Below, one piece after another: positions 15,916 to 29,593 of a stretch of 40,515 nt of DNA. The stretch's first letter is position 1, and each line of letters begins with the position of its first letter. This stretch comes from an uncultured Thermofilaceae archaeon (GTDB lineage: Archaea > Thermoproteota > Thermoprotei > Thermofilales > JAPDKD01): positions 1 to 40,515 of the forward strand of contig CAZPLI010000001.1 of the NCBI GenBank assembly GCA_964587325.1, written 5' to 3'. The notes beneath the pieces were generated by a model. The model made no database searches and was not told the origin of the DNA. It saw only the letters and a list, made by a program, of their open reading frames with translations. Made by a program: the position numbers and the translations under genes.

Positions 15916-16848
15916 ATGGTAGCGTTTAAGCGATTTGGCTGGAGGCATGTTGAGTTATCTGTCCCAGAAGACTGGTTCCTAGGCACGGAAGGTGGCACGC
16001 GAGGGAGTGGCTTCTTTAGGCTTGAGGACAGATACAGACCTAGATTAGAGATTACCTGGCAGTCTATTAAATTCGAAAAGGCTCCTAGTACGAAGAAGGC
16101 ATTTGATGGATTTATCAAAAACATTGAAAAGAGGCTCTCCAAGGCCGAGGCTGCTGAACTTAAGGTAGTATCTAGGGAGGAAGTAAGCATATGCGGACAT
16201 GACGGCTTCTTAGGACGATTGCGTAGCGGTTTGTGGATCGCCTCAGCAATGACGTGGTACTGCGAGTTCTCAGAGAAAATGTTCGGCGCGTTACTAACGT
16301 TTTCGCCATCTGATCCAGAACGTGAACTGGTGGAGCGGAGAATAGTAGAGAGTCTTAGATGCCACTTCCCTGCCGACGCAGACGTTTTGTGGTCCCTTTA
16401 CGGCGTCGAGGTCGAACTACCGGCCAGCTTCTACTTAGTGAAGGCCCACCTCACGACAGGTCTCTCTCATGCAGTGTTTAAACACAGCTCGAAGAACCTG
16501 CACATTGCGATTGCTTATAGCGCGATGGCCCACCGGCTTCTAAAGGCTAAGGGAGGCCTTAGCGAAATAGTAAATAAAGATTTTAGGAAGCAAGTGGTGA
16601 GCAGTGTGCGTAAGTTTGGACGAATAAACGTCAAGAAAGGAGAAGGTGGTGTTTACCTTTTAACAGCCTCAACCTTTGACTTGCTATTTGGTAAGGTGCA
16701 ACTAATGGGCCAAGCTTGGATATCGACTAACGACAGGATGCTTATAGTCTCTGTCATCGCACCACGTAAGCTTGCAGAGGAAGCAGAGAGACTCTTGCAT
16801 AGTACTTGTGAAAAGCTCCGTCAGAGAGCGGGCCTCGCCATAAGATAA
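15916..16848 (+). CDS. Hypothetical protein with apparent internal duplication
   Basis: 310-aa ORF with a GGAGGG SD; the segments GWRHVELSVPEDWFL and SLYGVEVELPASFYL resemble each other. Confidence 0.7.
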   Translation: MVAFKRFGWRHVELSVPEDWFLGTEGGTRGSGFFRLEDRYRPRLEITWQSIKFEKAPSTKKAFDGFIKNIEKRLSKAEAAELKVVSREEVSICGHDGFLGRLRSGLWIASAMTWYCEFSEKMFGALLTFSPSDPERELVERRIVESLRCHFPADADVLWSLYGVEVELPASFYLVKAHLTTGLSHAVFKHSSKNLHIAIAYSAMAHRLLKAKGGLSEIVNKDFRKQVVSSVRKFGRINVKKGEGGVYLLTASTFDLLFGKVQLMGQAWISTNDRMLIVSVIAPRKLAEEAERLLHSTCEKLRQRAGLAIR

Positions 16849-17309
16849 GCATCCTCGCCGTCTCTGTAATACCCTCTAAGGACTTTCACCTTTCTGAAAC
16901 CCAGCTTTTCGTAAAGAGAAATTGCAGGTTTATTAGATACACGTACCTCAAGATAATATTCATCTACGCCATATACTTCCTTCAAAGCTTTCATGGCCTC
17001 TGTCATGAGACTCGTGCCTATGCCTTTCCTTCTCATATGGGGTACTACGGCTATGGAAATTATGTGTCCCTGTCTCCCGAAAGCCCGCTTTGAGGTATAC
17101 AATGATCCCAATTCTACTCTACACATAATATAGCCGACAATTTCCCCCTTACTTTCTGCGACAAGAAAGGCTTTGGGGAAGCGCTCGTAATGCATTTTGA
17201 AGAAGTAGGGAGGGTAATTCTCGGGAAGATTTTCACGGTTTATTCTTATCACGTCGTCTAGATCTTTTTCAGTGACCTCTCGGATTATGTACTCTGTCCT
17301 GCCAGCCAT
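16821..17309 (-). CDS. ard1: N-alpha-acetyltransferase Ard1/RimI (GNAT)
   Basis: LPENY, GHIISIAV, RRKGIG, LEVRVSN and YYRDGEDAYLM motifs. Confidence 0.93.
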   Translation of the reverse strand: MAGRTEYIIREVTEKDLDDVIRINRENLPENYPPYFFKMHYERFPKAFLVAESKGEIVGYIMCRVELGSLYTSKRAFGRQGHIISIAVVPHMRRKGIGTSLMTEAMKALKEVYGVDEYYLEVRVSNKPAISLYEKLGFRKVKVLRGYYRDGEDAYLMARPAL

Positions 17310-17320
17310 AATAGGTCCCG

Positions 17321-17912
17321 CTACTCGATAAGCAACCCCCTCTCTTTAAGTATCCTATAGATTTTTTCAACAGCCTCTTTGACTTGACTCTCCTTCCTAG
17401 CCCCTGTACACACGATATTGCCACTTGAAAATATCAGAAGAACCACTTTGGGCTCTCTCATTCTGTATATCAGGCCTGGAAACTGTTCGGGCTCGTACAT
17501 GGCTCCTTCAAGCTCGTAAGCAGCTCTCTCCAAGTCCACAGCGGCTCTGAGCTTCGCGCTCGCAACTATATTCTGTATTTCAATTATTGGCTCGCCTTTG
17601 ATCTCTATACCGTGGCTCTTTAACAGCTTGATTATACTCTTTACGGCCCTATAGACATCAGCTTCAGACTTTGCGCCTGTACATACCATTTTTCCGCTTG
17701 AGAATATGAGAGTGGCTGTCTTAGGCTTGTTTAGTCTTAATACTAGGCCTGGAAACTCTCGGATCCCGAGCCTAAGCCGGCTCGGGATGTTCCGGGCTGT
17801 ACTCTGCATTTGGTACGCGCTCAGCTATTTTTTCAAGCTCTAACTCTTGGCCTAGTGTTACAGATGCTACTACGTTCTCTATTTTAAAAACGGGGCGGCG
17901 GATGGCTATCAA
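17321..17912 (-). CDS. tbp: TATA-box-binding protein, spliced: exon 1 17912-17789, exon 2 17757-17321 (186 aa; TTG start tentative)
   Basis: Exon 1 encodes MIAIRRPVFKIENVVASVTLGQELELEKIAERVPNAEYSPE. Exon 2 continues QFPGLVLRLNKPKTATLIFSSGKMVCTGAKS and carries the second repeat (IQNIVAS...YEPEQFPGLIYR). The two frames join only if 31 nt are removed. Confidence 0.93.
17758..17788 (-). other. 31-nt bulge-helix-bulge pre-mRNA intron candidate in tbp
   Basis: CGGA-AC^A-UCCCGAGCC-GGCUUA-GGCUCGGGA-UCCG-AG^A. It has a 4-bp central helix, two 3-nt bulges and a 9-bp intron stem. Cuts after the second bulge base rejoin to GAA CAG UUU (E-Q-F). Confidence 0.9.
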
Positions 17913-17950
17913 CCCCCCTTACACCTTTTATGTTTTTCTCCGAAGCCCCC

Positions 17951-17964
17951 TTTATAAACCTTTT
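17951..17964 (-). promoter_or_regulatory. BRE/TATA promoter of tbp
   Basis: Minus strand AAAAGG-TTTATAAA about 40 nt upstream of the TTG start. Confidence 0.65.
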
Positions 17965-18078
17965 AAGGCGTAATCAGGTACACGATACGTTCAATATAGT
18001 TTTCCCTCCTTTCTCGCCTCTTGCTTTATGAGAAGGCTCTTCCCTCATACTATTTAATTATCCTTTGAGGCATGATCC

Positions 18079-18996
18079 TTGGCTATGACGGAAGACGTGA
18101 TAGAGAAACTAGAGAAAGCGGGAGCCGCTGTTGCTCAGGCTCTTGAGAGAGCACTAGACATAGTTCAGGAGGGCGCATCCATAAGGAAAGCATGTCAAGA
18201 CCTAGAGAACGTTGTATTAAAGCAGGGAGCCAAGCCAGCGTTTCCAGTCAACATATCAATTAATGAGGTAGCAGCACACTACACCGCGCCTCCTACTGAC
18301 GACCCCTTAATACCCCCAAGAAGCGTGGTGAAAGTCGATATTGGTGCTCACGTGGACGGATACATAGCCGACGCCGCGATAACAATAGCATTAGACCCAG
18401 AGCACCTACCTCTCGTGAAAGCTGCCTACGACGCGCTGAAGGTTGCGCTTAGCACTCTAAAGCATGGAGTTAGCTTACGCTTGGTAGGTGCAGCGGTGGA
18501 GAGATGCATTTTGGCTAACGGGTATGTGCCCATTAGGAACTTAACGGGCCATAAGATAGAAAGGTATAACCTTCACGCAGGCAAGTCAGTGCCTAATGTG
18601 GCTGTGTGGAGCCTCGCACGTGCAGAGGAAGGGGAGATATACGCTGTTGAGCCCTTTGTTACTGATGGAGAAGGTGTGGTCGTAGAAGGGGGGTACGGTA
18701 ACATATTCAGGATAATCAGCACAAGGAGAACTGGCTATAGAGAACTTGACGAGTTCCTCCGGGCCCTATGGAAAGAGTATAGGTCTTTACCGTTTGCCTC
18801 TCGCTGGGTGTATACAAAGTGGGGTTTGAGAGGTTTAGAGAAGCTAGAGGAACTTGTGCGCAAGAAGAGAATCTATCACTATCCTGTACTCGTTGAGCGT
18901 AGTAAAGGTCTAGTGTCACAGTTTGAGGACACTGTGATTGTGACCCGAGAGGGAACGAAACCCTTAGTCGGCACGCTAAGCATTGTGAAATACTGA
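18079..18996 (+). CDS. map: Methionine aminopeptidase type II
   Basis: AFPVNISINEVAAHYT, DIGAHVDGYIAD, NLTGH and EPF motifs. Confidence 0.96.
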   Translation: MAMTEDVIEKLEKAGAAVAQALERALDIVQEGASIRKACQDLENVVLKQGAKPAFPVNISINEVAAHYTAPPTDDPLIPPRSVVKVDIGAHVDGYIADAAITIALDPEHLPLVKAAYDALKVALSTLKHGVSLRLVGAAVERCILANGYVPIRNLTGHKIERYNLHAGKSVPNVAVWSLARAEEGEIYAVEPFVTDGEGVVVEGGYGNIFRIISTRRTGYRELDEFLRALWKEYRSLPFASRWVYTKWGLRGLEKLEELVRKKRIYHYPVLVERSKGLVSQFEDTVIVTREGTKPLVGTLSIVKY

Positions 18997-29492: not shown

Positions 29493-29593
29493 GGCCCCGG
29501 TAGCGCAGACTGGTAGCGCACCGGCCTGTGGAGCCGGACCTGAAAAACATAGAAAGCCGGGGGACCCGGGTTCGAGTCCCGGCCGGGGCCCCA
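29493..29593 (+). tRNA. tRNA-His(GUG) with encoded G-1 and a 23-nt intron at 37/38 (29532-29554)
   Basis: G-GCCCCGG/CCGGGGC-C-CCA acceptor. The splice motif has helix CTGT/ATAG with bulges GG^A and AA^A. Promoter-like GAAAGGCTTAAG upstream. Confidence 0.94.

Follow-up and report, generated by a model that had tools for sequence, protein, structure and literature searches.

A 31-nt insert interrupts tbp, the gene for the TATA-binding protein (TBP), in an uncultured Thermofilaceae archaeon, on the minus strand of a 40,515-nt stretch of contig CAZPLI010000001.1 (the window, whose positions are used below unless another contig or locus is named; the genome that contains it is G000). It is very likely that this insert, at 17788-17758, is a tRNA-type bulge-helix-bulge (BHB) intron in the pre-messenger RNA of the only tbp of this hot-vent archaeon. 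This conclusion is drawn from the presence of inserts at the same site in 30 genomes, from covarying helices, frozen exon codons and junctions that are always CAG or CAA, and from the fact that the inserts break the frame or carry a stop codon in a single-copy gene of an organism that has both the tRNA splicing endonuclease EndA and the ligase RtcB. An initial annotation of the window had suggested that such an intron must be removed for TBP to be made, and the comparative evidence supports this, with splicing itself predicted from the genomic sequence.

The organization of the gene is that of a TBP coding sequence in two frames. Among the open reading frames (ORFs) of the window, tbp appears as a 46-aa ORF (17912-17772, minus strand) and a 162-aa ORF (17809-17321, minus strand). 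The product of the former is the TBP N-terminus (...KIENVVASVTLG...NAEYSPE), terminated by a TAG stop at 17774-17772, and the latter begins with approximately 16 residues that are not TBP-like before running into ...EFPGLVLRL. The initial annotation had described just this, a nonsense N-terminus on the longer ORF with the true N-terminus in another frame, and both are present where it had placed them. Exon 1 (17789-17912, minus strand; Pfam TBP model positions 2-36, E 9e-9) has an inferred TTG start codon at 17912, the first start past the upstream stop, and comprises 41 codons and the first base (C) of a split Gln codon. Exon 2 (17324-17757, minus strand; Pfam TBP E 6e-54) supplies the last two bases (AG) of that codon and 144 further codons, comprising the remainder of TBP repeat 1 and the whole of repeat 2, with the stop codon at 17323-17321. 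The Pfam TBP model continues unbroken across the gap, with model positions 2-37 at 17888-17787 and 36-84 at 17761-17615, followed by repeat 2 (2-84) at 17584-17342, and two complete PF00352 repeats are present in one polypeptide only after the exons are joined.

The RNA of this region has the features of a substrate for tRNA splicing. The whole BHB motif (17753-17798, minus strand), defined from the sequence and from pair counts on 31 homologous inserts, consists of a weak outer helix (AGCC 17798-17795 with GUUU 17756-17753), a 4-bp central helix (CGGA 17794-17791 with UCCG 17763-17760), two 3-nt bulges (ACA 17790-17788 and AGA 17759-17757), a 9-bp inner stem (17787-17779 with 17772-17764) and a 6-nt loop (17778-17773). 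The central helix, bulges and inner stem are exact to the base as they had been described in the initial annotation. Archaeal EndA cuts after the second base of each bulge, and this rule, as had also been calculated, removes exactly 17758-17788; joining 17912-17789 to 17757-17324 by script yields a stop-free frame of 186 codons encoding a two-repeat TBP.

Conservation of the insert in related genomes supports this reading. Junctions were cut out from the 39 genomes with a Pfam TBP match among the 41 of the host's order, and an insert was found at the same codon in 25 of them (25/41 of the order, 25/39 of those with a match), with 14 having no insert. It follows the Glu codon plus one base, splits off the final two bases of the Gln codon in front of FPG, and measures 27, 28, 29, 30 or 31 nt in 1, 4, 13, 3 and 4 genomes, respectively. 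A covariance model, R1, was built from these 25 inserts, whose own matches to it are therefore not independent evidence. When run on 120 genomes of the class, R1 matched five more outside the order, in 4/4 genomes of family f11 and 1/1 of family f12, and on reading these carry inserts of 26-31 nt at the same site; as they had not been used for R1, they represent an independent test. The class total is thus 30/120 genomes with the insert. R1 matched none of the 74 genomes in five other families of the class, in which the TBP matches consist of two whole repeats, and none of the 132 genomes outside the class in a 151-genome phylum sample, and in the 25 genomes of the order that carry the intron it matched the element at no other place. 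Among the best 80 TBP loci in the genome_contigs collection, 74 have no insert, one has a single extra base and five have an insert, with site sequences identical to genomes of the order already counted. One genome outside the order, G057, has two inserts, one of 31 nt in repeat 1 and another of 27 nt at the corresponding position of repeat 2, ...YEPEQ/FPGLIYRM... (loci L136:700-754 and L136:1004-1054; contig C1, ~63699-64053), bringing the total to 31 inserts.

Other irregularities of tbp were seen in the course of this survey. The locus with one extra base (L097, from a record labelled Candidatus Bathyarchaeota) reads CAAT at the same site in place of the 3-nt Gln codon, probably owing to a 1-nt assembly error in a long-read contig. 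In three metagenome-assembled genomes (MAGs) from another family of the class, G079 (L138), G084 (L139) and G085 (L141), single-base deletions in short runs of G disrupt tbp when compared with G078 (L140), and the deletions in G079 and G084 fall at the same site between the repeats; these breaks look like homopolymer sequencing errors, not introns.

Selection for an RNA structure is evident from the MAFFT alignment of the 31 inserts with their flanks, on which the named structure was counted. The central helix is paired in 31/31 inserts and both bulges are 3 nt in all of them. One central pair has changed from G-C to A-U (CAGA/UCUG) in G055, G056 and repeat 1 of G057, and one becomes G-U in G053. 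In the inner stem 96.4% of cells are paired, and 9/9 pairs have changes on both sides. The structure as a whole has a covariation score of 0.443, against a shuffled mean of 0.189 (0/500 shuffles reach the observed value) and no more than 0.141 when the 3' partners are slid by 1-3 columns. Alignment of related tbp genes, as proposed at the outset, thus found the insert in 30 genomes and compensatory changes in both helices. The folding energy of the 61-nt stretch is -27.9 kcal/mol (z = -3.41), which 0/200 shuffles match. With parameters for 80 C, the minimum-energy fold comprises the central helix, a 3-nt bulge and the inner stem in 6/7 printed sequences of the 31 that were folded. Rfam has no family at 17300-18000 at E values up to 1.

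The effect of the insert on the reading frame, and the constraint that it places on the neighbouring codons, are consistent with removal at the RNA level. Insert lengths overall are 26 (1), 27 (3), 28 (6), 29 (13), 30 (3) and 31 nt (5), such that the frame is broken by length in 25/31; all six inserts with a length that is a multiple of three contain an in-frame stop, and the unspliced reading of the 31 always stops within 26 codons. The junction given by the EndA rule is CAG or CAA, encoding Gln, in 31/31 (computed for 24 inserts and read from the sequence for the other 7), as in intronless orthologues. In G002 the first bulge reads ACG, and Gln is obtained there only with the bulge rule and not with a cut one base later. 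The preceding Pro-Glu codons at the 31 intron sites are CCGGAA in 27, CCAGAA in 3, each with a UCUG partner, and CCGGGA in 1. CCGGAA occurs in 0/14 intronless repeat-1 sites of the order, which have eight different codon pairs, and in 3/42 intronless repeat-2 sites, so that only at sites with the insert are the exon codons of the central helix frozen. Exon 1 differs between G000 and a genome of the same genus by 22 synonymous and 3 non-synonymous codons, and on this measure is under purifying selection in its own frame. The single CCGGGA site, in G053 (contig C8; L132:757-808), has GGA (Gly) in place of GAA (Glu) in the central helix, where the A-U pair becomes G-U; this Glu-to-Gly change at a conserved TBP residue could be real or a MAG error.

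The insert is present in genuine DNA and in the sole tbp of the organism. Four public DNA runs, each from a different study, have contigs that align to 17300-18000 with no indels and no joints. Those of three runs from three studies (X1, X2 and X3) bridge the insert and reach more than 31 letters past it in both directions, and that of a fourth run (X4) covers it with 25 letters on one side and was not counted as bridging. The possibility of an assembly artefact, raised when the element was first noticed, is thereby answered by contigs of three independent DNA runs, and the possibility of another intact tbp is answered by relatives: in four of these, G005, G017, G020 and G022, with genomes of 1-2 contigs and 99% completeness, the split three-piece locus provides the only TBP matches. 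G000 itself (175 contigs, 94.6% complete) has Pfam TBP matches at this locus only. TBP is indispensable for archaeal transcription initiation, and as the split locus is the sole tbp in closed genomes, TBP must come from the interrupted gene. In another genome, G019, an additional, weak match to the TBP domain lies apart from the main tbp locus (C1:38196-38384, L042; 23.7 bits, model 3-67), which may be a TBP-like paralogue or fragment.

A splicing pathway can be proposed from these features. The transcript would fold such that the 9-bp intron hairpin stacks on the 4-bp helix, formed by the exon-1 sequence CGGA, within the Pro-Glu codons, and UCCG of the intron, with a 3-nt bulge flanking each strand. 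A heteromeric EndA would then cut after the second base of each bulge, and RtcB would join the exons, remaking the CAG codon for Gln and the sequence ...YSPEQFPGL..., and would probably circularise the intron. Unspliced mRNA would be expected to yield only the 46-aa fragment, because of the in-frame UAG in the loop. The enzymes are encoded in G000, which has two EndA-family PF01974 matches (107.7 and 48.4 bits, on contigs C20 and C34) and one RtcB match (606 bits, on contig C21). From the gene count we infer that the two EndA genes encode alpha and beta subunits, which fits the heteromeric crenarchaeal enzyme. This form of EndA accepts relaxed motifs, according to the available portions of PMC5829648 and PMC2724299.

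Several observations weigh against an intron of this kind. The outer helix is poorly maintained, with 62.9% of its cells paired; the C-G pair next to the bulge is kept in 30/31 inserts and the next pair in 1/31, consistent with its description as weak in the initial annotation, and the repeat-2 copy of G057 alone has a full 4-bp outer helix. The core of the motif is therefore canonical (3-4-3) and its intron stem strong, but the outer helix is relaxed and the motif is not of the strict hBHBh' form, so that cleavage at the 3' site would lean on the relaxed specificity of heteromeric EndA. With parameters for 37 C the BHB is not the minimum-energy fold of G000 (-19.7 against -27.1 kcal/mol), and an alternative pairing of the exon flanks is favoured. 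As a control the tRNA introns of the genome are weak: ARAGORN called 31 tRNAs in G000, 17 of them with an intron, and only 5/17 introns fit BHB geometry as called, one of which is a spurious 2-nt call. The 12 misfits are probably due to imprecise boundaries, and the cleanly called introns of the Lys-UUU, Lys-CUU, Arg-UCG and Leu-CAA tRNAs show the same arrangement as tbp with 4/4 central pairs. There is no second convincing mRNA intron in G000 by a strict-pair scan, which would leave tbp as a lone case, and no RNA run is among the public sequencing runs that contain the stretch.

The scan for other introns covered both strands of G000 for a 4-bp Watson-Crick central helix with 3-nt bulges, an inner stem and open frames on both sides, with strict pairing that would miss relaxed introns and candidates judged without homology. 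Fifty candidates passed the ORF filter, and of the 12 for which flanking peptides were read by eye, only tbp looked like one gene. A control with reversed sequence was uninformative, since reversal keeps hairpins. The best other candidate was a 45-nt BHB-like hairpin at C7:23841-23885, between open frames of 246 and 318 codons; it was rejected as an mRNA intron as the peptide downstream resembles the beginning of a distinct gene, and it is probably an intergenic hairpin. Within the window, a 100-nt tRNA-Ser(GGA) was called at 29494-29593 on the plus strand, and in intron mode ARAGORN reported tRNA-Gly, tRNA-Ser and tRNA-Lys with introns on the window's contig, some of which may lie past the window end.

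The conserved features of the insert allow the intron to be weighed against other ways in which a cell might live with an interrupted tbp. A ribosome could bypass the insert, hopping or shifting frame over 26-31 nt of uncut RNA, much as it hops over the gap in gene 60 of phage T4. Such a process would account for a stable hairpin with a stop just past the take-off region, which resembles known bypass sites, and, as above, no RNA run contains the stretch. However, bypassing has no need of a 4-bp helix between exon and insert, of two 3-nt bulges or of compensatory change, all of which selection keeps; no matched take-off and landing codons are conserved, the length varies from 26 to 31 nt, and cutting by the EndA rule restores the Gln codon of the orthologues in 31/31. 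We therefore consider bypassing to be most improbable. It is also very unlikely that TBP functions as two pieces or as a truncated protein, with the exon-2 product acting alone or the 46-aa peptide and the exon-2 product assembling non-covalently. Split genes do occur in archaea, and public records annotate proteins of 137-153 aa that start in or past the insert, but the annotated starts differ between records (MSGSGIREFPG..., MREFPG..., MLRLNRPK... and VLRLNKPK...), and as such there is no conserved start. A protein made from exon 2 would have TBP repeat 1 without its first 36 positions, exon 1 shows both conservation and purifying selection, and a two-piece protein leaves the covariation, the frozen exon codons and the exact CAG junction unexplained.

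That the locus is a decaying pseudogene, or an artefact of assembly or binning, is barely conceivable. A second copy could lie in the part missing from G000, given its 94.6% completeness in 175 contigs, but contigs of three separate runs bridge the insert, 30 genomes carry the insert, among them closed genomes in which the split tbp is the sole copy, and both exons keep their frame and conservation. A BHB intron in tbp pre-mRNA thus remains the reading that we prefer.

The history of this intron appears to be one of retention with repeated loss. Intron state was mapped on a TBP tree of 51 sequences and 186 columns, made by a quick method that left deep branches poorly resolved and without G034, in which the gene is cut by a contig end; a minimum of 6 changes is needed, only 2 of which are forced by well-supported branches. 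G012, with no insert, is sister to G017, which carries it (97% SH-aLRT), in a genus where 7/8 species have the insert; G013 and G006, also of one genus, have opposite intron states; and an intron-free clade contains 7 genomes of genera g14, g15 and g21. Intron-free genes all have exactly CAG or CAA at the site. Judged by its distribution the intron is old, being found in at least two orders of the class, and if it arose once there have been at least three apparent losses. The simplest reading of these patterns would be that the intron was gained long ago and has since been lost exactly several times, as proposed for cbf5. In G057 the local sequence around the repeat-2 intron is the same as that at the repeat-1 site, as could result from spread to a matching site; between the two introns themselves there is no obvious sequence similarity. 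The related idea, suggested by G057, that the intron is or was mobile as RNA and can re-insert at the matching repeat-2 CCGGAA-CAG-TTYCC site is, in our opinion, unlikely.

An intron in the coding region of tbp has, as far as we have checked, not been described, and would belong to the known archaeal BHB mRNA introns without requiring a new mechanism. The available text of Yokobori 2009 (PMC2738675) names the intron of cbf5 as the only archaeal pre-mRNA intron to have been confirmed and records the cbf5 gene of Thermofilum as having none, and that of Schwarz 2020 (PMC7714728) reports a 5'-UTR (untranslated region) intron in Haloferax, with cbf5 as the only other mRNA BHB case. A tbp intron goes unmentioned in the accessible parts of PMC2738675, PMC12397907, PMC3189178, PMC4090602, PMC7714728 and PMC3218864, and in the full-text literature searched more generally, although subscription papers, book chapters, supplements or the Thermofilum pendens genome paper could mention it. 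This search agrees with the initial annotation, in which no intron in tbp had been known. As far as the available text of the cbf5 reports goes (Watanabe 2002; Yokobori 2009, PMC2738675), the crenarchaeal cbf5 pre-mRNA intron is similarly a short BHB intron within a coding frame; for both genes, removal is ascribed to the tRNA splicing endonuclease, exact losses are scattered among lineages, and gene-calling errors result. By the same sources, cbf5 introns occur in Desulfurococcales and Sulfolobales, unlike the lineage of the tbp intron, and cbf5 splicing was confirmed by RT-PCR, whereas the case for tbp is built on sequence comparison. The tbp intron, unlike that of cbf5, can occur twice per gene, at equivalent sites of the internal repeats (G057). 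The HVO_1309 mRNA of Haloferax volcanii is, in the accessible portion of PMC7714728, likewise an mRNA substrate of the splicing endonuclease beyond tRNA and rRNA, but its intron is in the untranslated leader of a euryarchaeon and interrupts no frame, in contrast to that of tbp. Archaeal pre-tRNA introns (hBHBh' and relaxed variants) have the same 3-4-3 geometry and cutting rule as the tbp intron, which differs in having a messenger as its host RNA and an outer helix that is weak and formed of coding sequence.

The consequences for public annotation are already visible. TBP records named Infirmifilum lucidum, I. uzonense, Thermofilum pendens and Thermofilum sp. (P0010, P0071, P0106, P0022, P0014 and P0103) are N-terminally truncated at 141-153 aa, with starts that fall within the insert (MSGSGIREFPG...) or beyond it (MLRLNRPK...), the kind of miscalling by annotation pipelines that had been anticipated; this agrees with the intron having escaped notice. 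Other records, named Thermofilaceae archaeon, are full-length at 185-191 aa and contain ...NAEYSPEQFPGLVLR..., equivalent to the predicted junction. In the window, the neighbours of tbp are a GNAT acetyltransferase gene (16824-17309) on one side and an M24 peptidase gene (18079-18993) on the other, and a putative TATA-like box, TTTATAAA, read by eye at 17951-17958 (minus strand), lies ~40 nt ahead of the TTG start.

A parallel outside the archaea is provided by HAC1 and XBP1, in which a very short intron (26 nt in XBP1) in the mRNA of a transcription factor is excised by the endonuclease Ire1 in a stress-regulated manner, the ends are joined by tRNA-ligase chemistry (RtcB in metazoa), and the frame changes on splicing. 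This is an analogy of mechanism only, as the nuclease is Ire1 and not EndA, and nothing in the tbp data shows regulation. Coupling of transcription to EndA/RtcB capacity is speculation, and we think it improbable that tbp splicing serves as a regulated checkpoint. If it did, full-length TBP would be made only when EndA/RtcB capacity was free, and basal transcription would be tied to the state of tRNA and rRNA maturation, in an archaeal counterpart of HAC1/XBP1.

The tbp intron would be the second, independent and widely conserved intron within an archaeal protein-coding frame, after two decades in which cbf5 stood alone by the account in the available text of PMC7714728. Its position in tbp exposes a systematic annotation error, the truncated TBP in records of cultured Thermofilum and Infirmifilum, and shows an intron constraining the synonymous sites of its host codons. 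The 30 genomes that carry it, with one double-intron gene, provide a natural experiment on the gain, exact loss and duplication of BHB introns. It is very likely, then, that mRNA splicing by tRNA enzymes is not confined to one gene, and that in these archaea it extends to the factor that nucleates every archaeal transcription initiation complex.
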